A stretch of 64,000 nucleotides of DNA from a virus. The DNA lies in the IMG/VR virus record IMGVR_UViG_3300024182_000001, positions 1-64,000 of that record. The stretch is one strand, 5' to 3'. Position numbers and translations under genes: made by a program. This document shows, in pieces, positions 39,960 to 64,000 of this stretch (positions within the stretch are counted from its first letter, which is position 1; the number at the start of each line of letters is the position of its first letter). The notes beneath the pieces are model-generated. The model did not search any database. It saw only the letters and a program-made list of their open reading frames with translations, and was not told the origin of the DNA.

Positions 39960-40139
39960 TCATGGCACCCTCATGAATGGATAAGCTTCCTGGCAATGTT
40001 CGGCGCAGTAGGCCGCGCGTGCTCCTTGCCTCTGCAGCGCCGGCTTCCCGCAGAACAGATGCCGGTACTCGTCTTCACCCGTCGGGTACCTGCATCCGCT
40101 CTCGGGTACCTCCCAGATGGGAATTCCTTCATTTTCCAT
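39960..40139 (-). CDS. small Cys/His-containing protein (59 aa, zinc-binding candidate)
   Basis: My own translation gives MENEGIPIWEVPESGCRYPTGEDEYRHLFCGKPALQRQGARAAYCAEHCQEAYPFMRVP. It overlaps the PseI stop by 11 nt. Confidence 0.3.
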   Translation of the reverse strand: MENEGIPIWEVPESGCRYPTGEDEYRHLFCGKPALQRQGARAAYCAEHCQEAYPFMRVP

Positions 40140-41208
40140 CAGCGTTCTCCATCGGGCGAAGTACGCGCTCGAACATTTCCAGCTTTAATGGCTCTCCACG
40201 CTCGATATCACGCGTGGCTTTATTCCCTACAATCTTGTCGATCGTATCCGGCGGCCAGCCGTGCCCCGGCCGGATGCTTCTCACATTCTCGTAGCTGAAT
40301 ACTTCCCCTTTCTTGATATCCTGCACGACGAACAGCGAGCGTCGATACGCTTTATGCACGCTCTCGGTCGTCACTTCCTCACTCTCTTGCATCGCCGACC
40401 ACGTCTCGTAGACCGCCTTGACCATCCGGGCGAACGCCGCCGGCTGCAAACTAAAAGCCTCATCCTCGCTATTCACACCCTCCAGTCTGAAATGCTTCTC
40501 GACCATGCACGCCCCAAGCGCTGTCGCAGCAATTGGAACCTCAAGCCCGAGCGTATGGTCTGACACGCCGTAGAGCGGGGAGTATCTCCGCATCTTGCCG
40601 AGGTTATAATCGCTTGTCTTGGCGGGGTATCCGGAGACGCAGTGGAGCACCACAGGTCCTGTCCCTACATCGCCCAGCCAACTTCCATCCGCGTACACGT
40701 TCGCCACGGCCCCGAGCGCTTTCAGTATGTCGTGCTGGTTCGCCATCCCGGTGGATAAAATAACGGGCTTCCCGGTTCGCGCCGCGTACCTGATCAGTGG
40801 GATATCCGTGATCTCGAACGAGGCAATCTTATATGCCGGGCACTTCAGCTTTTCCAGCATGTCGACGCTCGACGGGTCAAAAACGGAGGCAAACCACTCG
40901 ATCCCTATTGCCTTGGCATGCTCGGCGATCCAGGGGAACCACTCGAACGGCGTCTCACACTTCTTATACAGGTCCCACAGCCGCTTCCCCTTCCAGGGCC
41001 CATCCTTGATAAAAAACTCGTCCCGATCGCAATTCAGCGTGATCGTCTCGGCCGTATATGCCTGCAATTTACAAGCATCGGCTCCGCTCCGCTTGGCGGC
41101 TTCCATCGTTTCCAGGCACCGGTCCAAGCTCCCCATATGGTTCGCGCCTATCTCACAAACGATATAGGGGGCTTCCCCGCCTCCGATTTCTCTACTTCCG
41201 ATTTTCAC
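40129..41208 (-). CDS. pseI: pseudaminic/N-acetylneuraminic acid synthase family protein (NeuB/PseI-like, with SAF domain)
   Basis: N-terminus IGGGEAPYIVCEIGANHMGSLDRCLETMEAAKRSGADACKLQ. The family identification is confident; the exact sugar product is inferred. Confidence 0.8.
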   Translation of the reverse strand: MKIGSREIGGGEAPYIVCEIGANHMGSLDRCLETMEAAKRSGADACKLQAYTAETITLNCDRDEFFIKDGPWKGKRLWDLYKKCETPFEWFPWIAEHAKAIGIEWFASVFDPSSVDMLEKLKCPAYKIASFEITDIPLIRYAARTGKPVILSTGMANQHDILKALGAVANVYADGSWLGDVGTGPVVLHCVSGYPAKTSDYNLGKMRRYSPLYGVSDHTLGLEVPIAATALGACMVEKHFRLEGVNSEDEAFSLQPAAFARMVKAVYETWSAMQESEEVTTESVHKAYRRSLFVVQDIKKGEVFSYENVRSIRPGHGWPPDTIDKIVGNKATRDIERGEPLKLEMFERVLRPMENADGK

Positions 41209-41446
41209 TCAGTACCTCCCTTGGATCATACGTCCCGTTTGTATCTGGTATCCAGCCGGGGCACGTCATGAGCCCGTCGACATACCACACGGCTCCTTCC
41301 TTCTTATGGTCCCGGAAGCACTTGCCTGTGGTCTCGTCTTCTCCCGAGAACGTTTTGAACGAATAGTATCCACACATCCAGCATCGGTGTGGATCATCCT
41401 TGGTCGTAAGCTTCGCATCCGGCGGTGCGGCGTCGAAGATGCTCAT
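41192..41446 (-). CDS. small Cys-containing hypothetical protein (84 aa)
   Basis: ATGA-coupled to the PseC stop. Start chosen at MSIFDAAPPD. Confidence 0.35.
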   Translation of the reverse strand: MSIFDAAPPDAKLTTKDDPHRCWMCGYYSFKTFSGEDETTGKCFRDHKKEGAVWYVDGLMTCPGWIPDTNGTYDPREVLSENRK

Positions 41447-42585
41447 AGCTTCATCTCCTCCGCTACTTTCTTGAAAGCGTTTCCGATCTGCTTGATCTGT
41501 TCTCGCGTTGGCGACCACGCGCAATTCTCGAACAAAAAGAGCCTGCGGTCGTGAAGGTCTTCTGCCACCGGGCACTCTCTTGCATACTTCGAGAACGCCG
41601 GCAGCCGGTACAGCGGCGCCACATATCCCTGGCTCACCGGCACGCCTTCCATGAACAGCCGGCTGGTGAACTCGGCCCGCGCTCCTGACGTTTCGTTCTT
41701 CATGAGAAACGGGATGGCATAATAAACATGCTTGCATCCTTCCCGCACCGCGGGCCCTCGTATTCCAGGAATATCCCCGATCGCCTCGATGATCGCTTCT
41801 GCTTGCTCGATCCTTCCGCCAATCAGCTCGTCCGCCCTTTGGAGCTGCGAGAGCGCAATGGCCGCGGATACCTCGGTAAGTCGGAGGTTGAGGCCAATAG
41901 CCTTTCCCGCCATCTCCCCATGGTTAACGAATCTCCGTATTTTTTCCGCAAGCTCGTCGTTATCCGTGACGCATATACCTCCCTCACCACATTGCAAATG
42001 CTTATGTACGTTGAGGCTGAAAACTCCGATGTCTCCGAATGTTCCGGCATATTCACCTCGCTCCATTGCAAAGGGGGATTGGGAATTGTCTTCGATCACC
42101 GTGATATAGTTGGGTAGTTGTATCATTAAATCCTGTACTGCGGATGGATGCCCGAACAAGTTTGTTATTATAAGAGTTTGGCACCTATCTTCGTTGAAGT
42201 CGATATCGGCTGCGTGCTCAGGATTCATACAGAAGGTTGCATCTTCCACGTCAATAAAATGGGGACGGGATCCGGTGAACATTGGGGCTGCGACAGTAGC
42301 CGACATGGTGTAAGGTGAGACGGCAAACCTATTGAAGGTGGAAAGCCCGACCGCAAACGCCGCCGCCAGCAGCCCCGACGTTGCCGAATTGCATGCAACG
42401 GCGTGTTTGACGTCAAATCGCGCAGCCCACTTTTCCTCCAATTCGCAGACGTAATATCCATTCGATCTCAGCTTGCCGCCGATAAAGCCTGACAGGGTAT
42501 GACCACGCAGCATATTGTACGCGTTATATTTATCGGCGTGACTAACAGCTTCGTACGGCGCAATAGCCCCTTTCACTTCCGGCAT
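41443..42585 (-). CDS. pseC: DegT/DnrJ/EryC1-family PLP aminotransferase (PseC-like sugar aminotransferase)
   Basis: 380 aa of the DegT family, co-operonic with PseB- and PseI-like genes. Confidence 0.8.
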   Translation of the reverse strand: MPEVKGAIAPYEAVSHADKYNAYNMLRGHTLSGFIGGKLRSNGYYVCELEEKWAARFDVKHAVACNSATSGLLAAAFAVGLSTFNRFAVSPYTMSATVAAPMFTGSRPHFIDVEDATFCMNPEHAADIDFNEDRCQTLIITNLFGHPSAVQDLMIQLPNYITVIEDNSQSPFAMERGEYAGTFGDIGVFSLNVHKHLQCGEGGICVTDNDELAEKIRRFVNHGEMAGKAIGLNLRLTEVSAAIALSQLQRADELIGGRIEQAEAIIEAIGDIPGIRGPAVREGCKHVYYAIPFLMKNETSGARAEFTSRLFMEGVPVSQGYVAPLYRLPAFSKYARECPVAEDLHDRRLFLFENCAWSPTREQIKQIGNAFKKVAEEMKL

Positions 42586-43463
42586 AATTCCTCCCTCAAT
42601 TCCTCAACCGACATTCTTCGTGCGTCTTTGCTGCAGTTTGTTTCGTCCATGCTTTCGTGCAGCTTTTCCCAGCGCGGCAACCCGATTACGCGCATCTGCG
42701 CTTGGAATGCCTCAACGAGATCGCCCAGCCGATAGGCCGGCAACCGCGGGATTGCCAGTTCGCCACCTCGCATATCCTTGGCGGTATTGAGCACAAGGTC
42801 GACGGCTTGCTCCATCCGCATGAAGAAGCGCGTGCAGTTGGGATCGGTGACGTTGAGCCACGCGGGGTTCGGGTAGTACTTCTCGCATTCGGCTTTCCAC
42901 AATGGAACCACTGATCCTGTGGAACCCCAGACGTTGCCGTACCGGCAGACTGCAAACCGTGGGCCCTCTGCCCCGGTCGTATTATTTGCCGCGAGAAACA
43001 ACGACTCCATCATCGCTTTGCTGCACCCATATGGCGAGATTGGCTGGAACGCCTTGTCGCTCGATACTCCCACCACTTTCCTGACGCCTGCGTCTTGCGC
43101 CGCTTCTACCACGTTCATGGCCCCGAACACGTTGGTCTTCACCATCTCGATCGGGTTGTAGTGTCCCACCTCGATCCGCTTAAGCGCCGCGGCGTGGATC
43201 ACCACGTCGATACCGCGCATGGCGCGCACCAGTCGATCTCGATCCCGCACGTCGCCGATGAAGAAGCGTAACCGCTTATGTGGATCTAACCCTGCAAGCT
43301 CTTGGGACATCTGGTGCTGGCGGAATTCGTTGCGCGAGAATATGACTATCTTGCTAATATTTTCATATAAGGCGAGCGACGCGAAACGCGTAGTTTCTAG
43401 TAGCTGCTTCGCCAGCGCGGTTCCAAGCGCCCCTGAGCCTCCGGTTATTAAATACGACGTCAC
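42573..43463 (-). CDS. pseB: UDP-GlcNAc 4,6-dehydratase of the PseB/FlaA1/CapD type (short-chain dehydrogenase)
   Basis: ITGGSGALG Rossmann motif. Segments KIVIFSRNEFRQHQM, RFFIGDVRD and HAAALKRIE resemble PseB. Confidence 0.8.
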   Translation of the reverse strand: MTSYLITGGSGALGTALAKQLLETTRFASLALYENISKIVIFSRNEFRQHQMSQELAGLDPHKRLRFFIGDVRDRDRLVRAMRGIDVVIHAAALKRIEVGHYNPIEMVKTNVFGAMNVVEAAQDAGVRKVVGVSSDKAFQPISPYGCSKAMMESLFLAANNTTGAEGPRFAVCRYGNVWGSTGSVVPLWKAECEKYYPNPAWLNVTDPNCTRFFMRMEQAVDLVLNTAKDMRGGELAIPRLPAYRLGDLVEAFQAQMRVIGLPRWEKLHESMDETNCSKDARRMSVEELREELCRK

Positions 43464-45481
43464 GCTCTCACCATCGGTTCAACGCTTCCCCCTTCCAACC
43501 TCTTTTCCACGTCCCCCTTCCTTACCGCTTCCTCGATCACGCCCAGGGTGTGGTCGTACGATTTCAGCACGCGCTTGATCTCGCTCATTCCATGCGCCGC
43601 GCAAATGTTGTGTGAAGCGATGATCAGCGTCCCGGTCGCGATCATTTCCTTCCGGAATAGCGCGGCGATGGAACCGGCGGCAGGCATGCTTGTGTGATCC
43701 TTGAACTTCAGTCGAATGAGTGGCTCTGCACCATACAGCGAGATGTATTCAGTGAGTTCGGCGTCTTCTATTTTCAGGGCTACTTGTGCGCCAAGGTCTG
43801 CGCCTTTGAACCATAATCCGTCGATCACATTATCTCGCTCCAGCTTCTTGATCGTCGCAATCCCGGCCGCCAGGCTTAAAGCCTCTCCGAAGAACGTTCC
43901 GGAATAGAAGATATTATCTGGCGGCTCCATCCGCTTCATAATATCCCTTCGGCCGACGATTGCCGACAGCGGCATCCCGTTGGCCATCGCCTTGCCGAAG
44001 CACGCGAGATCGGGTGTCACGCCATAGAGCTTTTGCGCTCCTCCTAGGTCGAAGCGGAAGCCGGTTATGACTTCGTCGAATATAAGGACGGTGCCGGTCT
44101 CGTCGCAGTATTCGCGCAACGATTTCAGATAAGCTGGATTGCTTTCTGGTTCGACGATAACAGCGGCAAACCGTTCGATACCTGCGAGCCAGGGGTTCCA
44201 TCCAAAAGCTTCGCGCCTGCTGAATACCTGTATTCCTCCTGGGATGCCGATAGTTCGCTCGCAACTCCAGTCTGCCCACCCGTGGTACCCTCCGCATATA
44301 AGTACCCGGTTCCTGCCGGTATAAGCCCGCGCCAACCGCACCGCGCACGTGGTTGCATCCGTCCCGGTCTTGCCGAAGCGCACCATCTCGGCGCAAGGGA
44401 TCAGTCTTACCAGAAGTTCGGCTAATTCAGCTTCGAGTTCGGTGGCAAGGGAAAATGAGATGCCTCGGGAGAGTTGATCTCGGATTGCTCCATCGACGTT
44501 AGGATCACAGTAGCCCAGGATGTTTGGGAGCAGGCCGGACACAAGATCAGTGTATGAGTTACCGTTGACATCCCAGACTGTTCCTCCTTGCCCGTGGGTG
44601 AGGAAGAGTGGGGAGGGTTGGGGGAATTGGAGTTTTGACTTGCTGAATGTTTGTGTGCCCAGCGGAATGACAGCTTCAGCGCTTCCCAAAAGACTTTGGG
44701 AGCGATCATAGCTGCGGCGATATACGGGCTCCTCCACCAACGCATCGTAATACCTCTGATTTATTTCGTGATCAGTATTCAGTTTTCGCAGCGCCGGGCT
44801 TTTGTCCAGAATATCGAGGATAGCCAGTTGTGACGGCGGCCCTTTTTCCCACGGCCAGTTGGTGGCGATTGCCTTGCAGAATTCGTAATCTGCCGCAGTG
44901 TCGAGAACGTATCTTTCTTTATGTTGGTTTGAAATAGGGTTGATAATGGTTCTGGCGGAAAACCGCGACTGGTTGGCCTGTATCCACGTCGTTACGCATT
45001 CCCGATCGATGGGGCGGATGGCTTCTTTGTCGGCGGCACGTAGCGCGTCGATCGTAACCGCCTCACAATCTTGCCCGTCAGCGAAGGTGCGCGGGCTGAC
45101 ATTGCTAGCGTAATCGCAGCCAGTATCTTTTTGGAGCCTGACGACTTCCCCGATAATATTTGGATCAATTAGCGGACAGTCACAGGTGACCCTTATTGCA
45201 ACACTGGCGTTTGCCGCTTCGGCAGCACCGAGAAAGCGAGAGAGCACATCGGTCTCCGAGCCGCGGAAGACATTGACAGCGTGACTGTGGCACCAATCTT
45301 CAACAGTGTCGTCTGCAGGCAGCGTAGACGTAGCGATCCATACTTCATCCACTCCGATTGCAGCTTTCGCGGCGCGCGTAACCCATGCTATGACGGGCTG
45401 GCCGCCAAGATCCATCATCACTTTCCCCCTGAGCCGCGTAGACCCCATTCGGGCAATGCCGATAAAAACTGTTTTCACCAT
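43460..45481 (-). CDS. bifunctional protein: N-terminal cytidylyltransferase (CMP-nonulosonate synthetase/SpsF-like) fused to a class-III (GSA-aminomutase-like) aminotransferase
   Basis: N-terminus VFIGIARMGSTRLRGKVM. C-terminal DEVITGFR, FGKAMANGMP (Lys) and SGTFFGEALS motifs are typical of PLP class-III aminotransferases. Confidence 0.7.
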   Translation of the reverse strand: MVKTVFIGIARMGSTRLRGKVMMDLGGQPVIAWVTRAAKAAIGVDEVWIATSTLPADDTVEDWCHSHAVNVFRGSETDVLSRFLGAAEAANASVAIRVTCDCPLIDPNIIGEVVRLQKDTGCDYASNVSPRTFADGQDCEAVTIDALRAADKEAIRPIDRECVTTWIQANQSRFSARTIINPISNQHKERYVLDTAADYEFCKAIATNWPWEKGPPSQLAILDILDKSPALRKLNTDHEINQRYYDALVEEPVYRRSYDRSQSLLGSAEAVIPLGTQTFSKSKLQFPQPSPLFLTHGQGGTVWDVNGNSYTDLVSGLLPNILGYCDPNVDGAIRDQLSRGISFSLATELEAELAELLVRLIPCAEMVRFGKTGTDATTCAVRLARAYTGRNRVLICGGYHGWADWSCERTIGIPGGIQVFSRREAFGWNPWLAGIERFAAVIVEPESNPAYLKSLREYCDETGTVLIFDEVITGFRFDLGGAQKLYGVTPDLACFGKAMANGMPLSAIVGRRDIMKRMEPPDNIFYSGTFFGEALSLAAGIATIKKLERDNVIDGLWFKGADLGAQVALKIEDAELTEYISLYGAEPLIRLKFKDHTSMPAAGSIAALFRKEMIATGTLIIASHNICAAHGMSEIKRVLKSYDHTLGVIEEAVRKGDVEKRLEGGSVEPMVRA

Positions 45482-45990
45482 CGTGCAAATTCTCCATGAT
45501 ATTTTTTAGCGGCTTTTTGGTATGCTGTGGCTGCGTCGCTGATGTTGTTAAAATAGCCTAAAAATTTGCGCTGTTTATTGGTTGTTATTTGTGCCAGCCA
45601 TTTTTTCATATCCGGATGCCAGCATACGCCTTTAACGCCGCTTGTGTTTCGGATCGATGGTTTTTTATTATATGTATTTTGAGGCCGCGTGGCATCTCGC
45701 AGATTGGAAATTCGGTTGTCACTTCTATTTAAATTTCTATGATCTAGATCATTGATAGGCCAGCGACCACGTTCGTAGAACCAAGCTACTCTAGCAGCTT
45801 GAAAAAGCGTACCATCAACTCTTATCTGTATGTATCCGTCAGCTTTTAGGGAGCCGGCTACGTCACCTGTTTTACTGTTTCCGCGTGATATAAGGCGCGT
45901 AAATACGCCGGTGGCACGATCATAGTGAAGTACTTCTAAAAGCCGCGCGTGGAGTAGTTGCTTTTCTTTTTTCCTGTTTATTGCGGTCAT
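45475..45990 (-). CDS. HNH-AP2 homing endonuclease
   Basis: HNH_3 motifs in ARVAWFYERGRWP and DLDHRNLNRSDNRISNLR. AP2 DNA-binding domain in GVKGVCWHPDMKKWLAQITTNKQRKFLGYF. ATGA-coupled at both ends within the operon. Confidence 0.75.
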   Translation of the reverse strand: MTAINRKKEKQLLHARLLEVLHYDRATGVFTRLISRGNSKTGDVAGSLKADGYIQIRVDGTLFQAARVAWFYERGRWPINDLDHRNLNRSDNRISNLRDATRPQNTYNKKPSIRNTSGVKGVCWHPDMKKWLAQITTNKQRKFLGYFNNISDAATAYQKAAKKYHGEFARW

Positions 45991-46868
45991 CCCAACCCCA
46001 CCTTTTCCTTAACTTGCCGGCAAATCTCCAGCACTCGAAGCCCATCTTCACCCGTGGCCCATTGAACTGGCGGTTCTGCCGCGGTTCTAGTTGGGGCTAT
46101 GCCACCTATGAACGCCTGCATCTCATCGATATAGTCGTCATTCCACTCCCCACCGAACTGCTGCGTCATCTTGCCGAACGACACTTGCCGTCCGAGCATA
46201 TCCAGCCCGATGTTCTTCTCGGTACCGACGATCCAGCCTTCCCGGATTTCGTTCCGGGTCACATAATCCAGGTGGATGGTACTTCGGGCGCCGCTGTCGT
46301 GTTCAAGCACAATGTCGGCAATGTCATCCTTGCCGTCCACGACATGCACGGACGCCGCCACCACCTTCGCTGGCCCCAGCAGATAAAGCGCCAAGTCGAT
46401 CTCGTGCGACCAGTTCAGCACGACTCCATCACGCAGATAATCCGGCTTGTCGTTGTATTGCCCGCAGATGAAGGTAGCCCACAGCGGCGTGCCGATATGC
46501 CCGGCGTCGATCCAATTCTTGGCCGCTTTGATGCAGGGATGGAACCTGAGAAAATAGCCGAGAAATAGTTCTTTAAGCAGGTCTTCTTGCCAGAACTGTG
46601 CGATCTGGGCGCAAGTTCCTAGCGGCTTTTCCATAAAGATTTTGGCTCTTGCGGACATGGTAGCCCAGTCGTCGTAGTGACGGTTGGTGGGAGTGCATAT
46701 GAGAATAGCGTCGCTTTCAATTACTTCATCTCGATCCCAGAGTACGCCGCTGAGCGCCAACCTTTTTTTCATATCAGTGTCATACCCAATAACCTGGTGC
46801 CCCATCATTTTAAGATTACGCGCATGTCGCATCCCGATCGAGCCCAGCCCAAGAATCCCTATCTTCAT
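45987..46868 (-). CDS. Gfo/Idh/MocA-family NAD(P)-dependent oxidoreductase
   Basis: MKIGILGLGSIGMRHA Rossmann motif. The start was moved to M17, which is ATGA-coupled. Confidence 0.65.
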   Translation of the reverse strand: MKIGILGLGSIGMRHARNLKMMGHQVIGYDTDMKKRLALSGVLWDRDEVIESDAILICTPTNRHYDDWATMSARAKIFMEKPLGTCAQIAQFWQEDLLKELFLGYFLRFHPCIKAAKNWIDAGHIGTPLWATFICGQYNDKPDYLRDGVVLNWSHEIDLALYLLGPAKVVAASVHVVDGKDDIADIVLEHDSGARSTIHLDYVTRNEIREGWIVGTEKNIGLDMLGRQVSFGKMTQQFGGEWNDDYIDEMQAFIGGIAPTRTAAEPPVQWATGEDGLRVLEICRQVKEKVGLG

Positions 46869-47482
46869 GTTCTCACCGGTATTGCGTTTGTTCGTTTTTG
46901 CAGGATGGTTATGCACTCATCTTCCACATATAGGCGCGACCTATCCTGTACGTGATACCAAGGGTGTGCCGTCCACAATTCCGAGAAATCGAGATGGTAC
47001 GCGAGTAAACCTTCTTTCGGACTGTATGGAACGGCGTATGCAGGCTGGAGCGTGTTGAAATCATGAATAACCAGCCACCCTCCATCCGCCAGCAGCCTGT
47101 CCGCTTCCGCCACGATCCGGAACCATTCACGTGGCTCCGTAACATACAAGCAGAACCCGAAGATGATCATGTCGAACGTGCCGCCAAGCCATGGCTCGCT
47201 GTATCCGAACTTGCCCCAGCAGACATCATCCAGCCCGCTCGTAATAGCGACTGCCACGGCATCCTGGCTGGTATCAATCCCCGACACCCGGCAGCCGTAT
47301 TTATCTCGCATCTTGCGCAGTCGCCAGCCGTTGGAACATCCGACTTCGAGCACCCGCTTCGGGCGGATCAGCGGCAATAGCCCGAGTAGATCGCCGACCG
47401 GATCGCGCTTGCCGAGCTTCTCCTTGTTGCGATGGTACCAGGCATCGCCCTCGCCATTTAGGAATGTGTCGCTCTGGCTCAT
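46865..47482 (-). CDS. class I SAM-dependent methyltransferase
   Basis: Motif I in VLEVGCSNG, with an acidic residue at the end of beta-2 (GID). Confidence 0.65.
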   Translation of the reverse strand: MSQSDTFLNGEGDAWYHRNKEKLGKRDPVGDLLGLLPLIRPKRVLEVGCSNGWRLRKMRDKYGCRVSGIDTSQDAVAVAITSGLDDVCWGKFGYSEPWLGGTFDMIIFGFCLYVTEPREWFRIVAEADRLLADGGWLVIHDFNTLQPAYAVPYSPKEGLLAYHLDFSELWTAHPWYHVQDRSRLYVEDECITILQKRTNAIPVRT

Positions 47483-48240
47483 TTGTTTCCTAGTACGTAG
47501 AGGAAGTTGGGGGAGTAGAATTCTGGGCTAAATCCGAGTGATGGCAGTTGCGAGGCGACTTTATTGATCAGGTGCCCATAAGCCGGCTCTTTATCATCAG
47601 CCTTGCAGAGAGCGGCGTACACGGCGCGCGAGATTATATAGTAGAGGTTGCCGATATTCTCGCGACCGATGATATCGAAATGCGTGCTGGCGAACGGCTC
47701 GAATTCTCCTATCCACATATAGCGGTTATGCCAGCGTTCTTCGATCTTATGCAGGTCGAATTGAGCGCGTAGGTAGTTTAGGCTATGCAAGCCGTCTTTG
47801 AAGTTTTCAACGAGTATGATCGTTCCGCCCGGCTTCAGGCACTTCTTCATTTCCAGCAGCGCCACCTGCTGTTCTTCCCAACTCGCGAGATTGATCAGGC
47901 AACGTCCGGAGATGATGATATCTTGGTTATGCGCGTGCTTCGATAGTTCCCGCACGTCGCCGACAATAAAAGCGATATCGGAGTACGTTTTTCGCGCTTC
48001 ATGAATCATCTTCTCTGAGTAATCAACTCCGACGAAATCCGAGTCACAGGCTTCCCAGAACTTCTGGGTCGAATACCCGTTCCCACACCCGACGTCCAAT
48101 ATCTTTCTTCCTGGCTCCAGGTGCTCGATAATCTTCCTGATTTCCAGGTCCCGATAGAAATGATCCGGAGCGGTGGCGAGATCGGACGCGCCATGTTCTT
48201 GCGCTTGGGCGTCCCAGAATTCTTTTACTTTATCATTCAT
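47479..48240 (-). CDS. class I SAM-dependent methyltransferase
   Basis: Motif I in ILDVGCGNG. Start chosen at MNDKVKEF, which is ATGA-coupled. Confidence 0.65.
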   Translation of the reverse strand: MNDKVKEFWDAQAQEHGASDLATAPDHFYRDLEIRKIIEHLEPGRKILDVGCGNGYSTQKFWEACDSDFVGVDYSEKMIHEARKTYSDIAFIVGDVRELSKHAHNQDIIISGRCLINLASWEEQQVALLEMKKCLKPGGTIILVENFKDGLHSLNYLRAQFDLHKIEERWHNRYMWIGEFEPFASTHFDIIGRENIGNLYYIISRAVYAALCKADDKEPAYGHLINKVASQLPSLGFSPEFYSPNFLYVLGNK

Positions 48241-48416
48241 TCTGGAAGCTCCACTTTGATCCAATGGGTAAAACCAGCTTTTTCTGGTTCTAGATAATGA
48301 GTAGCGCTGCTGGTAAACCACGCCACCGGATGTGGAGCATCTTTATTCCATACAAGTATGATGGATCCATCACGTGGAGCCGCGCAGTATTCCAGATTTT
48401 CCCATTCCCACTTCAT
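48237..48416 (-). CDS. small hypothetical protein (59 aa)
   Basis: My own translation gives MKWEWENLEYCAAPRDGSIILVWNKDAPHPVAWFTSSATHYLEPEKAGFTHWIKVELPE. ATGA-coupled on both sides. Confidence 0.3.
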   Translation of the reverse strand: MKWEWENLEYCAAPRDGSIILVWNKDAPHPVAWFTSSATHYLEPEKAGFTHWIKVELPE

Positions 48417-48928
48417 TTAAACCTCCCATAAAGCAAAGCCCCAACCGGGGCGTGATCGATGATGAATTTATTCTTCCGTTCCCCCTCAAGTACGAACCTC
48501 GATTTCTCAAGGATACGCTTCATCGGGATATTAGCTGCCGCGCACCCGGCTTCCAGTTTCCGTATCTGGCCGCCATCTCGTTGATCAAGTAGCCAGTTGG
48601 TAGCAGCCAGCCAAGCCTCGAAGCCATAGCCCTGCCCCCACACGTTCATGAACCCGATCATGATCCCGACGTCGGCGACGTTGTTCGGATGATCCACTTC
48701 TGCCGAGATATTGCCGATATGCTCGCCGCTCTTGACGGTGTATATGCCCCACAGGTATCCACAAAATCCGCTTACGTAGCGGTTCTGGGTACTGAGCGTG
48801 TGTTCCTTATGGCGTTGCTCCGAGAACTTTGTGACTTCCTTATCCCGGAGCCAGTCTACTTGACGTTGGGTGGCTTTGGTTAGGGGGCGTAGCGTTAGCC
48901 TTTGGGTAGAGATGGTGGGGACGATCAT
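48413..48928 (-). CDS. GNAT N-acetyltransferase (RimL/PseH-like)
   Basis: GNAT core GIMIGFMNVWGQGYGFEA. In the context of PseB, PseC and PseI it suggests a PseH-like role. Confidence 0.6.
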   Translation of the reverse strand: MIVPTISTQRLTLRPLTKATQRQVDWLRDKEVTKFSEQRHKEHTLSTQNRYVSGFCGYLWGIYTVKSGEHIGNISAEVDHPNNVADVGIMIGFMNVWGQGYGFEAWLAATNWLLDQRDGGQIRKLEAGCAAANIPMKRILEKSRFVLEGERKNKFIIDHAPVGALLYGRFK

Positions 48929-49413
48929 CAGAACGACGCGACGTTGACCACAACCATCTTGAGATCGCGGATTTTAGCCGGCTCCAGATACTCAGTGCGT
49001 TCCTTCACCTTCTTGTCGACGATCTTGACGCGCTTGGCGTTGTGGGCTTCCAGGATCGTCTTGATATCGATCTCGAAGAATAGTTCCTGGTCGGTCGCAT
49101 CGGTAAGTTTCTGCTCGCCGCTATAGAGCAGCGCTATATCGAGCGGCACATTTTCGTTCGGGTCGGCGATGAACACTTGCACGAGGCGGCGAGTGGTTAC
49201 GGCCATAAGATTTTCCTTCAATGGTGGTGGAATAGGGTGGGTAGCGTGTCTGTCTAGCGCATTTTTATATTGTTGAGCGAGGTTGCCATGATTTTGTGCG
49301 AGAGGGGAACCTACAATTTGCCCAGCTTGTGCTTGCCCAAAGCAAGCCAAGTTCATAGGAGTGCTGGCGTAGGTACTTGACGCGATGTGCGGGATATCAC
49401 CGGTTGCCATCAT
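48928..49413 (-). CDS. hypothetical protein (161 aa)
   Basis: GAGGCGAGGAAA RBS with ATGA coupling. An internal start at 49206 (also with a strong RBS) is an alternative. Confidence 0.4.
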   Translation of the reverse strand: MMATGDIPHIASSTYASTPMNLACFGQAQAGQIVGSPLAQNHGNLAQQYKNALDRHATHPIPPPLKENLMAVTTRRLVQVFIADPNENVPLDIALLYSGEQKLTDATDQELFFEIDIKTILEAHNAKRVKIVDKKVKERTEYLEPAKIRDLKMVVVNVASF

Positions 49414-49571
49414 TTCCTCGCCTTCTCAAGCGCATGGTCCGTCAGCTTTAACAGGCTCTCGATCGCCAGCCGTATGGTGGCGGCCGAAGCGTCGAAGTCG
49501 CCGATGATTTTGAGCCTGTCGCGTTCCAGCAGGAGCGTATTTCTAAGTTCAACGATTTCGTCGCGGGTCAT
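49410..49571 (-). CDS. small hypothetical protein (53 aa)
   Basis: My own translation gives MTRDEIVELRNTLLLERDRLKIIGDFDASAATIRLAIESLLKLTDHALEKARK. ATGA-coupled on both sides. Confidence 0.3.
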   Translation of the reverse strand: MTRDEIVELRNTLLLERDRLKIIGDFDASAATIRLAIESLLKLTDHALEKARK

Positions 49572-49906
49572 GGTTTACTTTCTGGGGTCGAATCGCTAGT
49601 TTTTGGTTCGTCGTCTTCGACAGCTATTTCAAGCGCATCGACGATAACTTTAGCAATACGATCGGATGCGCCAAGAAGAAATTTTTCCATCTGGATGGCA
49701 GTTTCAAAAACATGATCGAGATGTAGTGTTGTTATATTTCTGCCCTCCAGCTTATATTGCTGGTACAAGGCGCCATCATGGATGGTGTTCATATTGTGGT
49801 ATTGAATCGCCATGTTTAGAGCTAGAGCGGCGATACCATGCGCTGGCGCGATCGGCGCGTCTTTGAGGGCTTCCAGTTCTTTAAAAGGACGTTCTTCAGG
49901 GTTCAT
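49568..49906 (-). CDS. hypothetical protein (112 aa), first gene of the island operon
   Basis: AAGGAG RBS before MNPEERPF. The Arg-rich 42-aa extension in the ORF track is probably untranslated. Confidence 0.4.
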   Translation of the reverse strand: MNPEERPFKELEALKDAPIAPAHGIAALALNMAIQYHNMNTIHDGALYQQYKLEGRNITTLHLDHVFETAIQMEKFLLGASDRIAKVIVDALEIAVEDDEPKTSDSTPESKP

Positions 49907-50150
49907 GTTGAACTCCTTGCCGAAATTTCTTGCCGCCAATCGACGTGGATACCTTCTCGCTTCTCGTCCACGATGCGCCTTACGACCTCCGAAACCGACA
50001 CGCTGTATTCGCGCGCCCGCTTTTCCAGCCATTGCATCTGGGATTTTGTAAAAACGATGCCGCGTTGTATGCCTGTCACCCGAATTCTCCCGTCAATGTT
50101 AGGTTAGTCTATATACGGACTAGTCATCTGTCAAGCGGTTTGTTCCAAAA

Positions 50151-51818
50151 ATGAACGTTCCCCTTACTCCAAAGCAGCTCGCCCAGTTCGCTCAAGCCTT
50201 AGAGCGCCAGAAAATCGTCGATGAAGCCGAAAAACTGGAGGGATCACTCTACGAATTCGTCAAAGCAGCGTGGCCATTCTTCGATCCAGCCGATTTTCAG
50301 GGAAATTGGCACCTGGAAGATGCCTGCAGGCACTTGGAAGCCGTTGCCAGGGGGCATATCAACCGGCTTTTGATCAATGTTCCGCCACGGACGGCAAAAT
50401 CCAGCCTGGCATCAGTCTGTTTTATTCCTTGGATATGGGCGCAACGTGAAGAAGGCCCCCTCTTGGGGCCGAAAGTGTCGGCTTTTTACGCTTCCTACGC
50501 TGAATCGCTTGCCCTGGAGCATTCTCTTAAGTGCCGACGCCTCATCGAATCCAAGTGGTACCAGCGCCGATGGGGGAATCGCTTCAAATTGGTCTCTGAT
50601 CGCAATAAAATCGGGCATTTCGAGAATGATAAGGGCGGCTATCGCATGGCGTCATCCGTTGGCGCGCGGGCGACGGGCTGGGGCGCCTCACTTATCCTTG
50701 CCGATGACCCTCACCTTGTTCAGGAAGCCGAATCCGAGGTGGTGCGGGAAAGTGTGATCAAGTGGTGGTCGGAATCGATGCCCTCGCGCCTCAATGACCG
50801 GCGCACCGGGGCCATGATCGTCATCATGCAGCGTGTCCATGCTGGTGACGTAGCCGGCTACGTGCTCTCCGGCGAGATGGGCTACGTCCATTATTGCGTC
50901 CCCATGTGCTATATGCCTTGCCGGCACGTGAATGCGTGGGTCGGCGACCAGGTCCAAACGTTTTTGGGCGATGACGTCGACAAAGTGAAGGAAGAAGACA
51001 TTTTCTGGGTCGATCAACGTACCGAAGACGGCCAATTGCTGTGGCCCGAGCGCTTTCCGGCCAAGGACGTGGCCAAATTAGAGACGGAATTGGGGCCTTA
51101 CGGCTTTGCCGGGCAGTACCAGCAGAATCCAGCCCCCCGCGGCGGCGGGATCATTCGGGAGGAATGGTGGAAGGAGTACGACGACGAGTCTGGCGCTGAA
51201 TTCGGCGCCAAGCCGGGGCAATATCCGGCCTGCGAGTACATTCTGGCATCTCTCGATACGGCTTACACTGAGAAAGAGGAAAATGACCCGTCAGCACTTT
51301 CTATTTGGGGTGTTTTCCGGGATAAAATGTCCAACCCGCAGATCATTCTCATGTTCTGCTGGCAAGAGCGTATGGTGATCCACGAGTTGGTCTCGCGGGT
51401 GGGGGCGGACTGTAAACGCTTCAAGGTTGACCGGTTGATCATTGAAGACAAGGCGGCTGGGCACTCGGTTTCCCAGGAAATAGCACGTCTGTTTGGCAAT
51501 TTCGATTTTGGCATCGAACTCGTCAACCCGCGCACTGGCTTTATCGCTTCTCCGGATAAAGTGGCTCGTGTGCAGACGGTGGTGCACTTGTTCGCGGAAG
51601 GAATGATCTGGGCGCCGGATAAGAAGTGGGCCGATGAGATGATCAACCAGTGTTCGCTATTTCCGCGCGCTACTCATGATGACCTGGTCGACACTCTTTC
51701 CCAAGGGCTTATCTATCTCCGCCGTGCCGGCTGGGCGGTAAAGAAGGAGGAACGCACTCTTGAGATCGAGGATGAGCTGCGTTATCGCCCGAAATTTCAG
51801 CCGCTTTATCCAGCGTAA
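50151..51818 (+). CDS. terL: terminase large subunit
   Basis: ATPase Walker A-like VPPRTAKSS and Walker B LILADDPH. The C-terminal region is nuclease-like and rich in acidic residues. Confidence 0.8.
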   Translation: MNVPLTPKQLAQFAQALERQKIVDEAEKLEGSLYEFVKAAWPFFDPADFQGNWHLEDACRHLEAVARGHINRLLINVPPRTAKSSLASVCFIPWIWAQREEGPLLGPKVSAFYASYAESLALEHSLKCRRLIESKWYQRRWGNRFKLVSDRNKIGHFENDKGGYRMASSVGARATGWGASLILADDPHLVQEAESEVVRESVIKWWSESMPSRLNDRRTGAMIVIMQRVHAGDVAGYVLSGEMGYVHYCVPMCYMPCRHVNAWVGDQVQTFLGDDVDKVKEEDIFWVDQRTEDGQLLWPERFPAKDVAKLETELGPYGFAGQYQQNPAPRGGGIIREEWWKEYDDESGAEFGAKPGQYPACEYILASLDTAYTEKEENDPSALSIWGVFRDKMSNPQIILMFCWQERMVIHELVSRVGADCKRFKVDRLIIEDKAAGHSVSQEIARLFGNFDFGIELVNPRTGFIASPDKVARVQTVVHLFAEGMIWAPDKKWADEMINQCSLFPRATHDDLVDTLSQGLIYLRRAGWAVKKEERTLEIEDELRYRPKFQPLYPA

Positions 51819-59043: not shown

Positions 59044-59061
59044 ATGTTGAACGCCGGCAAC

Positions 59062-60029: not shown

Positions 60030-60872
60030 ATGATCGAACGGCAGTGGCCGCAGATCTTCAAGTCCGTCGACTCGAACATGGCGCTCGAACGTCGTGTCGC
60101 GGTGCGCTTCCTAGGCTACGCGCAGCTCAAGAACGAAGGCGCTCCGACCGCCGCGGACAATAACGCCGGCCAGCGCTACGTGTACAATGCCGAACACTTT
60201 GAAATCGGTCTTATGTACGCGATCACTCGCAAGGCGATCGACGACAACCTCTACAAATCCGAGTTCGGCCCCAACAACGACGGCCTTATGGAGTCGTTCA
60301 AGGAAACCGAAGAAGTCTACGCCGGCAACGTGCTCAACAACGGCTCCGTCTATAACCCGGCCGTTCAGGGCGACGGTGTTGCGCTTATCTCGACCGCGCA
60401 TCCGATCGACGGAGCGACAATTGCCAACCAGCCTTCTCCGGATGTTTCTCTGAATGAGACTTCGCTGCTCAATTCGGCGATTGTCATCCGATCGACCTGG
60501 AAGAACAACGCTGGCCTGAAAATCCATGCGCGTGGGCAGAAGCTGATCGTGCCTCCGAACCTGGAGCCGATCGCCGCGCGCTTGTTTCGATCTGAGTTGC
60601 GAGTGGGTACTGGTCAGAACGACGTTAACGCCGTGCGCGAGATGGAGCAGTCCTTCAAGGAAGGCTACATGGTGTACGACTATCTCACGTCGTCTTTTGC
60701 CTGGTTCGTGCTGACGAATATTCAGGGACTTGTGTTCTTCCAGCGTAAGGCGTTCGAGAGTGACATGAGCGTCGAGTTTACTACTGATAACCTTTTAGTC
60801 AAGGGTTATCAACGCTACATTCCAACATATTTTGACTGGAGGAGAATTTTTGGAACCTACCCTACGTCGTAA
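60030..60872 (+). CDS. putative major capsid protein (280 aa), assigned by position
   Basis: Follows the scaffold/assembly genes and has its own promoter. It shows no clear similarity to T7 or lambda capsid proteins, so this is tentative. Confidence 0.4.
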   Translation: MIERQWPQIFKSVDSNMALERRVAVRFLGYAQLKNEGAPTAADNNAGQRYVYNAEHFEIGLMYAITRKAIDDNLYKSEFGPNNDGLMESFKETEEVYAGNVLNNGSVYNPAVQGDGVALISTAHPIDGATIANQPSPDVSLNETSLLNSAIVIRSTWKNNAGLKIHARGQKLIVPPNLEPIAARLFRSELRVGTGQNDVNAVREMEQSFKEGYMVYDYLTSSFAWFVLTNIQGLVFFQRKAFESDMSVEFTTDNLLVKGYQRYIPTYFDWRRIFGTYPTS

Positions 60873-60939: not shown

Positions 60940-61872
60940 ATGGAAACGAAAGCTCCTATTACTCATGCACGCGTTCGAGCACTTCTTGAGTATGATGCGG
61001 AAACAGGCGTTTTTCGTCGCAATCTTAGGAAATCAGATTTGCGCGAAGATGAGCCGCTTTCGCATGAGCGTTTGCTTCAAGTTCTCGAATATGATCCTCT
61101 TACGGGCATCTTTATCTGGAAAGAAAAAACAGGTCATAGATCGGTCATTGGAACTGAAGCCGGAACAAATAAAATTGTCACTAGCGGCGTGTATCGATAT
61201 ATCGCTGTCGACGGTGTCAGGTACCTTGCCCATCGACTTGCATGGTTCTGGGTCCGAAAAACGTGGCCCCGACTTCTTAAATTCAAAGACGGTGACTCCC
61301 TTAATTGTGCATTTGAAAACCTCGAAGATGCCGGAGAAGCTGTTGGAAGTGGTAAAACTAGTGAAGGATACGTCTACATTAGACTTGATGGCTCTGACTA
61401 TCCCGCAGCGCGACTCGCATGGTTTTGGACGTATGGAGAATGGCCGGGACTTCTTCGTTTTCGAGACGGTAATAAAGAAAATCTTCGGTTGGGTAATTTG
61501 CGAGATTCTGCAGCGGAGCCAGCGTACGCCAAAAGCGATCAAGAGCGGTATGAAGATCGAAAATCAGTGTACGCAAGAGATCGTGAACGGTCTCGAAATC
61601 TTGCATTCAAAAACAAGTATGGAATCTCACTGGCAGATTTCCGACGCATGGAAGCCGAGCAAAACGGCGTCTGTTCTATCTGCGGCCAACCGGAAACTAT
61701 CGAGCGTAACGGAAAAGCTCGGCTGCTCGCTGTTGACCACTGCCATGACACCGGCAAGGTTCGAGGGCTGCTTTGCGGGAAATGTAATCCGATGATCGGG
61801 TACGCAGATCACAGTATTGACATCCTCACGCGCGCTATTGATTATCTGAAGCGCACGAACGGAGCTGACTAA
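60940..61872 (+). CDS. composite homing-endonuclease-like protein: two degenerate HNH_3-type repeats plus a C-terminal endonuclease VII-type nuclease
   Basis: The repeats YRYIAVDGVRYLAHRLAWFW...DGDSLNCAFENL and YVYIRLDGSDYPAARLAWFW...DGNKENLRLGNLR parallel the HNH-AP2 protein at 45475. The C-terminus CSICGQPE...LAVDHCHDTGKVRGLLCGKCN is EndoVII-like. Confidence 0.6.
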   Translation: METKAPITHARVRALLEYDAETGVFRRNLRKSDLREDEPLSHERLLQVLEYDPLTGIFIWKEKTGHRSVIGTEAGTNKIVTSGVYRYIAVDGVRYLAHRLAWFWVRKTWPRLLKFKDGDSLNCAFENLEDAGEAVGSGKTSEGYVYIRLDGSDYPAARLAWFWTYGEWPGLLRFRDGNKENLRLGNLRDSAAEPAYAKSDQERYEDRKSVYARDRERSRNLAFKNKYGISLADFRRMEAEQNGVCSICGQPETIERNGKARLLAVDHCHDTGKVRGLLCGKCNPMIGYADHSIDILTRAIDYLKRTNGAD

Positions 61873-63139: not shown

Positions 63140-63475
63140 ATGCAGCCGGTTTACCTCGTCCGAACGTCTACGGGATCTTCCCCCTGGAAGCAGACTAATT
63201 GGCACTGCACCGGGCCGATGAATATCGGCGTGGCAGTTGCCTGCAATTCCACGTCCACGTGGCAGATCGACTATACGGTTGATGATCCAACCAATAACTT
63301 CCCCAATCCGACCTTGGGGTCCTCTGCGGTTACGATCTTCAGTTCCACAAGTGGTTCGTCATCGACATATGCCAGCTTCAGTACGCCCGTAGCGGCTATC
63401 CGACTGACGATGAATGCGCTGTCCAGTGCTGGCGGCAACGTGACAGCCACGATCTTACAGGCTGGCATCGGTTGA
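63140..63475 (+). CDS. virion structural protein (111 aa)
   Basis: ORF in the structural block; S/T-rich. Confidence 0.4.
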   Translation: MQPVYLVRTSTGSSPWKQTNWHCTGPMNIGVAVACNSTSTWQIDYTVDDPTNNFPNPTLGSSAVTIFSSTSGSSSTYASFSTPVAAIRLTMNALSSAGGNVTATILQAGIG

Positions 63476-63478
63476 TCG

Positions 63479-63494
63479 ATCACGATTTCGTGAT
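63479..63494. promoter_or_regulatory. palindromic operator-like site ATCACGATTTCGTGAT followed by a GGTGGAAC-TTCCACC palindrome
   Basis: Nearly identical to the site at 29414. The second palindrome (63500-63516) contains the origin iteron core GGTGGAAC. Confidence 0.5.
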
Positions 63495-63526
63495 ATAAGG
63501 GTGGAACTTCCACCGGGCCCGCGCCG

Positions 63527-63907: not shown

Positions 63908-64000
63908 GGTTGGGAAAGCTGACACCGACATTTGCCGATCAAATGGCCGCCAACGGAAATGGAGCCGGCGTCGTTCCAGTTCACGCTATTGCACCACATG

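Follow-up and report, generated by a model that had tools for sequence, protein, structure and literature searches.

The locus examined here raises the question of which sugar an operon resembling a nonulosonic acid pathway would provide to a phage, and on what that sugar would be placed. The window, a 64,000-nucleotide stretch of the phage genome, was taken from a source contig of 71,657 bp (~71.6 kb). It harbors genes for a large terminase, an SU10-type portal and adaptor, a capsid protein, a DNA polymerase, helicases, and a primase, and the claim of the first-pass annotation that the window is phage rather than host chromosome therefore holds. The operon occupies about ten kb of the minus strand (39960-50032) and consists of 14 tightly overlapping genes in a row according to the ORF calls, from 50032 or 49906 down to 39960. 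Overlaps were observed at 12 of the 13 junctions, eight of them of the 4-nt ATGA/GTGA type, in agreement with the translational coupling proposed previously; the remaining overlaps are 1, 7, 11, 13, or 17 nt, varying with the start chosen. The sole intergenic gap (91-172 nt) separates the GNAT gene from the first methyltransferase gene. The divergent large terminase subunit gene (TerL; 50151..51818, plus strand) adjoins the cassette in every clade member, and the 118-nt gap between them contains a promoter-like site, TTGACA-17-TAGACT (50106..50134, minus strand), with 10 of 12 consensus matches. Such sites are no more numerous here than expected by chance, so of this one only the position is suggestive.

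The core enzymes support a pseudaminic acid (Pse)-type sugar, as first proposed, with CMP activation and tailoring. The synthase (40129..41208, minus strand) has NeuB and SAF domains (1.6e-68 in the profile search) and passes the PseI equivalog threshold (TIGR03586, 384.2 bits against a cut-off of 340.25). The PseB-like UDP-GlcNAc 4,6-dehydratase (42573..43463, minus strand) matches Polysacc_synt_2 (1e-71) and contains the catalytic D-K and Y-x3-K motifs as SSDK and YGCSK. Its closest solved relative is H. pylori PseB (2GN4, 214 bits), and its score against the PseB equivalog model (290 bits) is below the cut-off of 408. The third enzyme (41443..42585, minus strand) is a DegT/DnrJ/EryC1-family sugar aminotransferase (DegT, 4e-57), as annotated, presumed to catalyze the PseC step; it is divergent, and its likeness to PseC and LegC is weak, with 137 bits for PseC and 133 bits for LegC as top NCBIfam matches (cut-offs about 420). 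PseC is not among its best solved relatives, which counts against the reading that we favor below. The GNAT N-acyltransferase (48413..48928, minus strand; Acetyltransf_3, 3e-17) was described as PseH-like; the family assignment stands, whereas the PseH equivalog model was not matched. PseG was absent from this genome and from every relative examined, as had been remarked. The description of the pathway as complete, and as sufficient to produce the sugar, was overstated: given the absence of PseG and the unmatched PseH and PseF models, the predicted pathway cannot be shown to run alone.

The 673-aa protein encoded at 43460..45481 (minus strand) combines two domains, and the fusion of a cytidylyltransferase to a class-III aminotransferase was thus confirmed. 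Residues 1-235 correspond to an SpsF/COG1861-type cytidylyltransferase (CTP_transf_3, 4e-24) without a match to the PseF equivalog model, and residues 255-673 to a class-III aminotransferase resembling GSA aminomutase (Aminotran_3, 1e-43). The latter domain is predicted to be competent; its PLP lysine K497 and the DE motif D469-E470 are invariant, and sugar C-6' aminotransferases are among its solved class-III relatives. Domain matches likewise bear out the two SAM methyltransferases and the oxidoreductase annotated earlier. The first methyltransferase (47479..48240, minus strand; start ATG 48240 or GTG 48321) is accessory and occurs in only some relatives, and the second (46865..47482, minus strand) is near-core in the clade. 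The Gfo/Idh/MocA NAD-dependent sugar oxidoreductase (45987..46868, minus strand) carries an N-terminal GxGxxG and resembles UDP-GlcNAc 3-dehydrogenase (6e-17).

Every chemical step proposed for these enzymes is inferred. UDP-GlcNAc would be dehydrated and inverted by the PseB-like enzyme, aminated at C4 by the DegT enzyme, and acylated at the new amine by a GNAT. The phage has no gene for the UDP-sugar hydrolase (PseG), and this step must be supplied by the host or by a protein that escaped recognition. The released hexose would be condensed with PEP by PseI, and the cytidylyltransferase domain would form the CMP-sugar. The oxidoreductase, the fused aminotransferase, a GNAT, and the methyltransferases may act as an oxidize-transaminate-acylate/methylate module, most likely replacing a free hydroxyl, at C8 or C4 of the CMP-sugar, with one more substituted amino group; where this extra amine sits is inferred as well.

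Bacterial capsule loci contain a GNAT-oxidoreductase-cytidylyltransferase-aminotransferase module within pseBC…GHI clusters. The Wza/Wzz/GT4 capsule locus of Janthinobacterium sp. CG3 (L028) is ordered PseB-PseC-GNAT(Acetyltransf_3)-aldo/keto reductase-CTP_transf_3-class-III aminotransferase-PseG/PseH-PseI, and the L. pneumophila Sg6 O-antigen locus lists the same pairing as this tailoring module (PMC3694923). The phage shares with this variant the PseB-like, DegT, GNAT(Acetyltransf_3), oxidoreductase, CTP_transf_3, class-III aminotransferase, and PseI proteins; the aminotransferase domains are 40-45% identical, and the operon GNAT shares 34% identity with the "extra" GNAT found in the bacterial pse capsule loci. 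However, the phages always lack PseG, this genome also lacks a PseH-type GNAT, and Wzx/Wzy/export genes are missing. Gfo/Idh/MocA stands where the bacterial loci carry the aldo/keto reductase, methyltransferases are added, and the cytidylyltransferase is fused to the aminotransferase, a fusion also found in some bacteria. Fusion of a cytidylyltransferase with an enzyme that tailors C8 has a precedent in EpaA of A. baumannii prophages, a CTP_transf_3 and aldo/keto-reductase fusion that, with EpaB, turns already made Pse into 8-epi-Pse (PMC12053666). Both systems are phage-borne, fuse CTP_transf_3 to a Pse-tailoring enzyme, and have a separate oxidoreductase partner (PMC12053666). They differ in the fused domain, which is an aldo/keto reductase giving the 8-epimer in EpaA and a PLP aminotransferase here, and in size, a two-gene module against a ten-kilobase operon. 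Moreover, the Epa phages are temperate and wholly reliant on host psa genes and host transferases.

Judged by comparison with related loci, the cassette is a hallmark of a monophyletic clade of uncultured phages, whose sequences grouped together in a neighbor-joining tree. It was present in 6 of 6 loci with at least 63% TerL identity, counting only loci with enough upstream flank, and its order was kept in 17 of the first 19 IMG/VR loci (35-66% identity). The fusion was found in more than 120 protein clusters. Among relatives the tailoring genes vary, with a formyltransferase, a PIG-L deacetylase, an ATP-grasp ligase, an extra GNAT, or an SDR reductase swapped in. The rarity claimed previously was also upheld: the cassette was not found in INPHARED phages, and the 50,697 deposited phage records contained neither a close PseI nor the fusion protein. 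Among viral auxiliary metabolic genes, pseI has been reported from Pacific Ocean viromes and read as "motility augmentation" (summarized in PMC6359870). There too, viral contigs carry a gene for a Pse synthase, but the report was a single-gene observation without a pathway, lineage, fusion protein, or transferase.

The first-pass annotation recognized no glycosyltransferase, which remains true only of sequence profiles. By fold, a candidate CMP-nonulosonate transferase, p297, is encoded in the capsid module about 14 kb from the operon. Its first 30 codons lie in the window (63910..64000, plus strand), and the gene runs beyond the window end (L185:10384-11277, 297 aa). The predicted model (mean pLDDT 80, core above 90) gave Cst-II (E 9e-5) and a P. 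multocida sialyltransferase (E 1e-3) as top Foldseek matches, both with probability 1.00, and CMP-sugar transferases ranked first in both structure-comparison programs. On the strength of this model, p297 is a previously unrecognized sialyltransferase-like protein with a Maf/GT42-like fold; its transferase activity is inferred. It contains the motifs GTAPSS, WFEIH, and TSS…KEIALYGIDMA…EY. There was no significant sequence match to Maf/GT42 and no Pfam PF01973 or GT42 assignment. Compared with M. magneticum Maf (5MU5), p297 is much shorter (297 against about 630 aa), and unlike Maf and the GT42 enzymes (C. jejuni Cst-I/Cst-II) it has a long C-terminal helix and is encoded in a phage capsid module.

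The fusion gene was also found on 14 of the 16 p297-bearing contigs longer than 45 kb, and none of ten cassette-less sister contigs appeared in the p297 list; these counts were obtained by pattern-based scanning, and phylogeny confounds them. The cassette-less sister L145, the one locus on which the syntenic absence of p297 rests, retains the capsid gene along with p75 and a gene resembling p111, but p297 is missing and a gene of only 152 aa occupies the place of p339. An unrelated HK97-type phage contig (L018) carries a p297 homologue (hhalign probability 99.5%) in the order TerL-[PseB, MT, 2x PseI-like, GFO, aminotransferase, CTase, GNAT]-portal-protease-MCP-179-aa Ser/Thr-rich protein-p297 homologue.

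The major capsid protein (MCP, Phage_capsid_4; 60030..60872, plus strand) anchors the order MCP-p339-p75-(p111)-p126-p297-p185, which was kept in 45-50 of 56 loci. Ser and Thr make up 22-30% of the neighbors of p297, whereas the median for the proteome is 10.6%. Candidate acceptors are p339 (61872..62891, plus strand; 29% Ser/Thr), directly 3' of the capsid gene, and the small structural-module proteins p111 (30%) and p126 (22%), encoded immediately upstream of p297 (63140..63907, plus strand). The earlier suggestion that the sugar could go onto Ser/Thr-rich virion proteins gains some support from the presence of a Maf/GT42-fold protein in the capsid module. Ser/Thr-rich composition is frequent in phage fibers and decoration proteins, and this counts against our preferred reading.

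With a probability of roughly 0.55, we infer that the operon makes a CMP-activated, decorated Pse-type sugar, which p297 would use to O-glycosylate Ser/Thr-rich head-associated proteins before assembly. Given the conserved operon and the sialyltransferase-like protein in the capsid module, phages of this clade probably cover their own virions with a sialic-acid-like sugar of the bacterial kind, and the coat would be variable. Pathway identity, the tailoring module, selection, the transferase fold, linkage, synteny, and composition were counted for this reading; no chemistry or protein mass data stand behind it, and the phage is uncultured. What the analysis shows directly is gene content, conservation, synteny, similarity of fold, and co-occurrence, and from these the chemistry, the transfer by p297, and the acceptor are inferred. 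Virion glycosylation in mycobacteriophages uses ordinary host nucleotide sugars and GT-A/GT-B transferases, unlike the operon described here, and those phages are not known to encode a nonulosonate pathway. The likeness is that the enzymes are phage-encoded and that Ser/Thr-rich stretches of structural proteins are the presumed acceptors; modification of capsid and tail proteins by phage-encoded glycosyltransferases is cited in PMC11256854.

The main competitor, possible though clearly weaker, is that host glycosyltransferases build the modified CMP-nonulosonate into capsule, LPS, or flagellin, altering the cell surface during infection, e.g., for superinfection exclusion or to stop progeny from sticking to debris. 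In that case p297 would play no part, or its target would be a protein of the host, for instance flagellin, which is glycosylated by Maf enzymes. The lack of both PseG and a PseH-type GNAT in this genome implies dependence on a host already making Pse, the nearest bacterial counterpart of the tailoring module is in a capsule locus, and the variable tailoring genes resemble O-antigen/capsule diversification. The prophage proteins EpaA/EpaB do exactly this to the A. baumannii capsule (PMC12053666). However, known seroconverting cassettes are small, and the cassette here is fixed across the whole clade, not sporadic. The phage also looks virulent, with its own replication module and just a 225-aa resolvase-type recombinase. 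Furthermore, two unrelated phages with nonulosonate genes each have a sialyltransferase-fold gene within the capsid module, beside Ser/Thr-rich head-module proteins.

It is doubtful that p297 is no glycosyltransferase and merely a structural or pyrophosphokinase-like protein sharing a Rossmann-like fold, with the nonulosonate serving as a soluble metabolite, as a host-enzyme substrate, or on an unknown acceptor via an unrecognized transferase. GT42 enzymes made up 8 of the 11 best PDB sequence matches of the broad p297-family profile without reaching significance (E 0.1-0.3), yet these weak matches align on one conserved sialyltransferase motif, TS…A.AI..G..EI.L.G.D…Y. The p297 family is very large (~4,000 clusters at 50% identity), which also counts in favor of a non-transferase role, and it may be wider than the cassette, so p297 need not use the cassette's sugar. 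Against a non-transferase role stand the first rank of CMP-sugar transferases by structure, the absence of p297 from a cassette-less sister, and its occurrence alongside nonulosonate genes in two phage lineages that are unrelated. Least credible by far is attachment of the sugar to phage DNA to evade restriction. Diversifying tailoring genes would be in keeping with an arms race against restriction, and a DNA methylase lies on the same strand as the operon, but none of the window ORFs was identified as a thymidylate-synthase-like hydroxymethylase, a 5-hmdU kinase, or another base-modification gene, none is on record for the remaining 7.6 kb, literature searches found no nonulosonate-DNA linkage, and the candidate transferase is located among capsid genes.

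The operon was also said to encode six small unknown proteins, of which only u53 and u161 are conserved in relatives. The small, helical-looking u53 (49410..49571, minus strand), at the cassette head, is kept in the close subclade (33-54% identity in 16 related loci). The u161 protein (48928..49413, minus strand) begins with a conserved motif, GD-P-I-SS-Y-S, in its N-terminal part, followed by a Gly-rich linker and by a C-terminal domain of 90 aa that is very conserved. It has 800 homologues but no Pfam match, and no match was found for its fold (best Foldseek E 1.4). The first operon ORF, u112 (49568..49906, minus strand; 154 aa from the alternative start 50032), is not conserved, and the Cys-rich u84 (41192..41446, minus strand) occurs only in this genome. 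The last gene of the overlapping run, a non-conserved 59-aa ORF (39960..40139, minus strand), resembles a fragment of the GcrA C-terminus exactly at the Pfam cut-off. One of the six is not unknown: the 171-aa ORF (45475..45990, minus strand) is an HNH_3+AP2 homing endonuclease (phrog_99, 1.5e-65) inserted in the operon, which overlaps its neighbor genes at both ends and is absent from this site in relatives.

The sugar operon was called as 14 head-to-tail ORFs on the minus strand, running from 50032/49906 to 39960. Adjoining genes overlap at 12 of the 13 junctions, eight of these overlaps being of the 4-nt ATGA/GTGA type, and only the GNAT and the first methyltransferase gene are separated by a gap. 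The GC content of the operon is in line with that of the rest of the genome. The 118-nt spacer that it shares with the divergent terminase gene holds a TTGACA-17-TAGACT site; in promoter and terminator scans of the region, sites of this type were no commoner than chance. The profile searches identified, all on the minus strand, a Polysacc_synt_2 dehydratase, a DegT aminotransferase, a Gfo/Idh/MocA oxidoreductase, two SAM methyltransferases, an Acetyltransf_3 GNAT, a 673-aa protein fusing CTP_transf_3 to a GSA-aminomutase-like class-III aminotransferase (43460-45481), and a NeuB plus SAF synthase that passed the PseI equivalog cut-off. The final ORF is similar to the GcrA C-terminus. The first-pass annotation had described a phage-borne operon of the pseudaminic acid (Pse) type with six small unknown proteins. 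The ORF calls, the profile searches and the PseI cut-off confirm that observation and support its reading with corrections; one of the six unknowns is by profile match an HNH_3+AP2 homing endonuclease (45475-45990, minus strand), both ends of which overlap the adjoining genes.

The pathway was then assessed step by step. The synthase scored 384.2 bits against TIGR03586 (PseI equivalog), above the cut-off of 340.25, and just 253 bits against the NeuB/NnaB model, whose cut-off is 400. The dehydratase reached 290 bits against TIGR03589 (PseB), below the cut-off of 408, and is about 30 aa shorter at its C-terminus; among solved proteins it comes closest to H. pylori PseB (214 bits, compared with 165-168 for FnlA/CapE), and it keeps the D-K and Y-x3-K motifs as SSDK and YGCSK. 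The DegT protein resembles PseC (TIGR03588, 137 bits) and LegC (133 bits) equally weakly, the cut-offs being near 420; H. pylori PseC ranks 26th among its solved relatives, the closest of which are other sugar aminotransferases, including Kdo8N transaminase. The GNAT of the window had no match to TIGR03585 (PseH) at E<=1e-3, but it may still do the PseH job because the Pfam family Acetyltransf_3 is common to both. Another GNAT, found in some relatives such as clade member L020, scored 40 bits against the same model, below the cut-off of 93. The N-terminal domain of the fusion belongs to CTP_transf_3 (4e-24), with 6OEW, an unnamed 'cytidylyltransferase', as its best solved relative; it had no match to TIGR03584 (PseF), and its KdsB-type matches were weak. 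This domain is likely a functional analogue of PseF, since the bacterial loci are without any other cytidylyltransferase. A tblastn search with Janthinobacterium PseG, verified as a query by its 267 bits against TIGR03590 (cut-off 154), matched neither the window nor any of 20 related phage loci at E<=10.

Because the PseI model is met, the dehydratase falls below its cut-off and the PseH, PseF and PseG models are unmatched, the operon is inferred from sequence to cover most of the Pse route and not the whole. The earlier claim of a complete pathway is therefore withdrawn. The comparison that had been proposed with PseB, PseC, PseH, PseI and PseF was borne out for PseI, failed for PseH and PseF, and left PseB and PseC short of their cut-offs.

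A counterpart of the fusion occurs in bacteria, where cytidylyltransferase and class-III aminotransferase genes, either fused or side by side, lie between pseBC and pseI in true chromosomes, as in Janthinobacterium, Endozoicomonas and Paenibacillus and in MAGs assigned to Undibacterium and Colwellia. The capsule locus of Janthinobacterium sp. CG3 reads Wza-Wzz-GT4-PseB-PseC-GNAT(Acetyltransf_3)-aldo/keto reductase, followed by CTP_transf_3-aminotransferase-PseG/PseH fusion-PseI. In the O-antigen locus of L. pneumophila Sg6 the same genes are listed as neighbours (PMC3694923). The prophage protein EpaA is a fusion of CTP_transf_3 and an aldo/keto reductase, which with the SDR EpaB converts Pse to 8-epi-Pse (PMC12053666). 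EpaA has a C-terminal aldo/keto reductase and an SDR partner, whereas the phage fusion has Aminotran_3 and a Gfo/Idh/MocA partner; the phage protein is analogous to EpaA in architecture and is not an EpaA-type member. The oxidise-transaminate-acylate logic is established in amino-sugar pathways, namely WbpB/E/D and GnnA/B. By analogy with both systems, the oxidoreductase, aminotransferase and GNAT would turn a nonulosonate hydroxyl into an acylated amine. The amine would sit at C4 or C8, the only free hydroxyls left once the sugar is condensed; the tailoring would most likely act on the CMP-sugar, and the methyltransferases may decorate the nonulosonate further. Bacteria also carry the cytidylyltransferase-aminotransferase module with oxidoreductase and GNAT in their capsule and O-antigen loci, and its product there is not known; working out the compact phage operon would therefore account for a branch of Pse chemistry that recurs but is uncharacterised.

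The contig met the tailed-phage test, as terminase, portal, capsid and replication genes fill it, and the view that the window is phage and not host chromosome was upheld. The window encodes a large terminase (TerL), an SU10-type portal with adaptors, a capsid protein and a GH108 lysin, besides a DNA polymerase, helicases and a primase-helicase; tRNA genes are absent, and an integrase was not found. The source contig measures 71,657 bp, and contigs of 71-77 kb turn up repeatedly among its relatives. Locus L185, which overlaps the window end, supplies the 7.6 kb missing from the window and closes the circle. The host was not identified. An alphaproteobacterium is only hinted at in the sequences, by the GcrA-like fragment at the Pfam cut-off and by relatives of TerL in phages of Roseobacter, Paracoccus and Rhizobium.

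The cassette is absent from deposited phages: no near-identical DNA was found among 50,697 phage records, and protein searches of deposited phages with PseI, the fusion and PseB returned remote matches or host-contaminated records only. The cassette was found in IMG/VR and metagenomes, where an initial scan gave 19 viral contigs and a later one 80. The same two-domain fusion occurs in more than 120 protein clusters (53-100% identity), many on 71-77-kb contigs. In a neighbour-joining tree, the aminotransferase domains from phages group together as a single clade, next to a broad clade of bacterial ones. The gene order GNAT-methyltransferase-oxidoreductase-fusion-PseB-(variable)-DegT-PseI is kept in 17 loci, and in each the cassette is transcribed away from TerL and the portal gene. 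TerL relatives were searched with an alignment, a single-sequence scan having returned distant relatives only. The cassette was present in all six loci with at least 63% TerL identity and enough flank; at 39-46% TerL identity some relatives carried it, mostly those of at least 50% portal identity, and a sister group with 40-49% portal identity was without it. The extra genes of relatives encode an ATP-grasp ligase, a PIG-L deacetylase, a PseH-like GNAT, a formyltransferase, an RmlD-type reductase and a second methyltransferase. These inserted genes are enzymes varying N-acyl groups, with no transferase and no PseG among them. L020 is a MAG contig (JAWVGY010000297.1, GCA_040384185.1) of 89,982 bp, about 15 kb above the usual 72-77-kb genomes; the surplus could be a concatemer or host flank, and might show the host. 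Cytidylyltransferase and class-III aminotransferase fusions of about 28-30% identity were also seen on two giant-virus metagenome-assembled contigs (L292 and L298, IMG/VR GVMAG) and on a 130-kb viral contig (L288).

A candidate transferase was found in the capsid module. The gene of the 297-aa protein p297 lies 3' of those of the Ser/Thr-rich p111 and p126, starts at 63910 and extends past the window end. It has no Pfam family on record, and phmmer and profile searches against the PDB gave E>=0.1 throughout, so that p297 has no significant sequence-profile match to the Maf/GT42 family. The test for a sialyltransferase-type (GT-A variant) fold was met: with a predicted model of mean pLDDT 80, Foldseek returned Cst-II at the top (E 9e-5), then a Pasteurella sialyltransferase (E 1e-3). 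Eight of 11 sub-threshold matches of a broader family profile against the PDB were GT42 sialyltransferases aligned on one motif, and PDB alignment confirmed this motif at the Cst-II-aligned place in p297. An hhalign comparison with a Cst-II sequence fell in the same place and was weak (probability 43%, 47 columns). Identity is 59-79% among the closest relatives, and the family comprises about 4,000 clusters at 50% identity. Resting on the modelled fold, p297 remains a candidate, and its use of a CMP donor to transfer a nonulosonate is inferred.

The order MCP-p339-p75-(p111)-p126-p297-p185-p100 is kept in most of 56 loci, and the fusion gene is present in 14 of 16 long p297 contigs. Of ten sister contigs without the cassette, none is in the p297 list. 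A cassette-less sister, L145, keeps the capsid, p75-like and p111-like genes; the syntenic position is without p297, and where p339 would be there is a 152-aa gene. In an unrelated HK97-type phage, L018, the terminase-portal interval holds PseB, a methyltransferase, two PseI-like proteins, a Gfo/Idh/MocA oxidoreductase, an aminotransferase, a cytidylyltransferase and a GNAT. Past its portal lie a protease, a capsid protein whose identity was confirmed by comparison with solved capsids, a 179-aa protein with 22% Ser/Thr and a p297 homologue (hhalign probability 99.5%). The same arrangement in two lineages argues that sugar pathway, transferase and head-associated acceptor form one functional unit.

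The system most likely serves to glycosylate the virion with a decorated Pse derivative, a reading to which we assign a probability of roughly 0.55; nothing has been shown chemically. Its main rival, which we consider unlikely, is that host surface glycans are converted via host transferases. Pfam scans for glycosyltransferase, Maf and PseG found none in any window ORF nor in 32 accessory ORFs from relatives' cassettes, which held only tailoring enzymes and one Metallophos phosphoesterase. The first-pass statement that no glycosyltransferase is recognisable thus stands by Pfam, but by fold p297 is a candidate. A 372-aa ORF (17346-18464) was rejected as a hidden transferase because it had no enzyme-like matches and a low-complexity C-terminus. 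A DNA-modification reading was also set aside, no base-modification genes being found in any window ORF or on record for the other 7.6 kb.

Virion glycosylation can be put more broadly, and only tentatively, at somewhat less than even odds: that capsids are 'sialylated' by the phages themselves in a widespread, uncultured SU10-like clade of about 72-77 kb and in at least one unrelated HK97-type lineage, which would place a hypervariable CMP-Pse derivative (possibly 5,7,8-triamino) on Ser/Thr-rich head proteins through a new and unannotated Maf/GT42-fold transferase family. Nonulosonic acids are viewed as sugars found on the surfaces of bacteria, archaea and animals. Phage sugar auxiliary genes, virion glycosylation and Maf-type protein sialylation are already known in kind; if true, this would be the first case of a bacteriophage particle glycosylated with a nonulosonic acid, would extend the repertoire of virion post-translational modification past the mycobacteriophage case and would show virion glycan diversification to be a common phage strategy. 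Phages may then mimic or mask host-like surfaces, with effects on adsorption to debris, grazing, stability and recognition, and the large p297-like family would gain a testable function. The accessory formyltransferase, deacetylase, ATP-grasp ligase and methyltransferases are a toolbox for chemo-enzymatic synthesis of Pse derivatives.

The most conserved unknown of the cassette is u161 (48928-49413, minus strand), from a family of about 800 small phage proteins in which a GD-P-I-SS-Y-S motif is conserved at the N-terminus and a Gly-rich linker leads to a C-terminal domain of 90 aa that hardly varies. Its partly confident model had no solved Foldseek match with E<1, and roles as transferase or acceptor were considered and left unsupported; the Ser-rich motif could be a modification site. 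Directly past the operon lies a small Ig/FN3-like protein (39431-39835, minus) with a weak Big_13 match and a Ser/Thr-rich C-terminus; its likely start at 39748 gives 105 aa, and it is not kept in relatives. Further downstream are a 225-aa resolvase/invertase-type serine recombinase (38600-39277, minus) and an N6/N4 DNA methylase (36649-37500, minus), with CcrM as second-best solved relative. A PAPS-reductase-like protein (22810-23679, minus) lies in the replication block.

Four homing endonucleases were counted in the genome, including the one inside the sugar operon. The others are a NUMOD4+HNH protein antisense just upstream of the capsid gene (59062-59892, minus), an HNH+Endonuclease VII protein directly 3' of that gene (60940-61872, plus) and a GIY-YIG protein between both SU10-adaptor genes (L185:15871-16767). 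The plus-strand ORF at 59044-59961 is probably a spurious antisense reading of the NUMOD4-HNH gene. In the tail/internal-protein module, a 163-aa ORF (5055-5546, plus) with a weak GNAT (Acetyltransf_7) signal is flanked by 281-aa and 1563-aa proteins. A tail-fibre-like protein (2813-4228, plus; 24% Ser/Thr) had a sub-threshold match to the second domain of Mtd, the tropism determinant of a Bordetella phage; a search of the window's genes showed no reverse transcriptase. Past the window end, between p297 and the adaptor genes, lies a collagen-like repetitive Gly/Ser/Thr-rich protein of 369 aa (L185:12684-13793).
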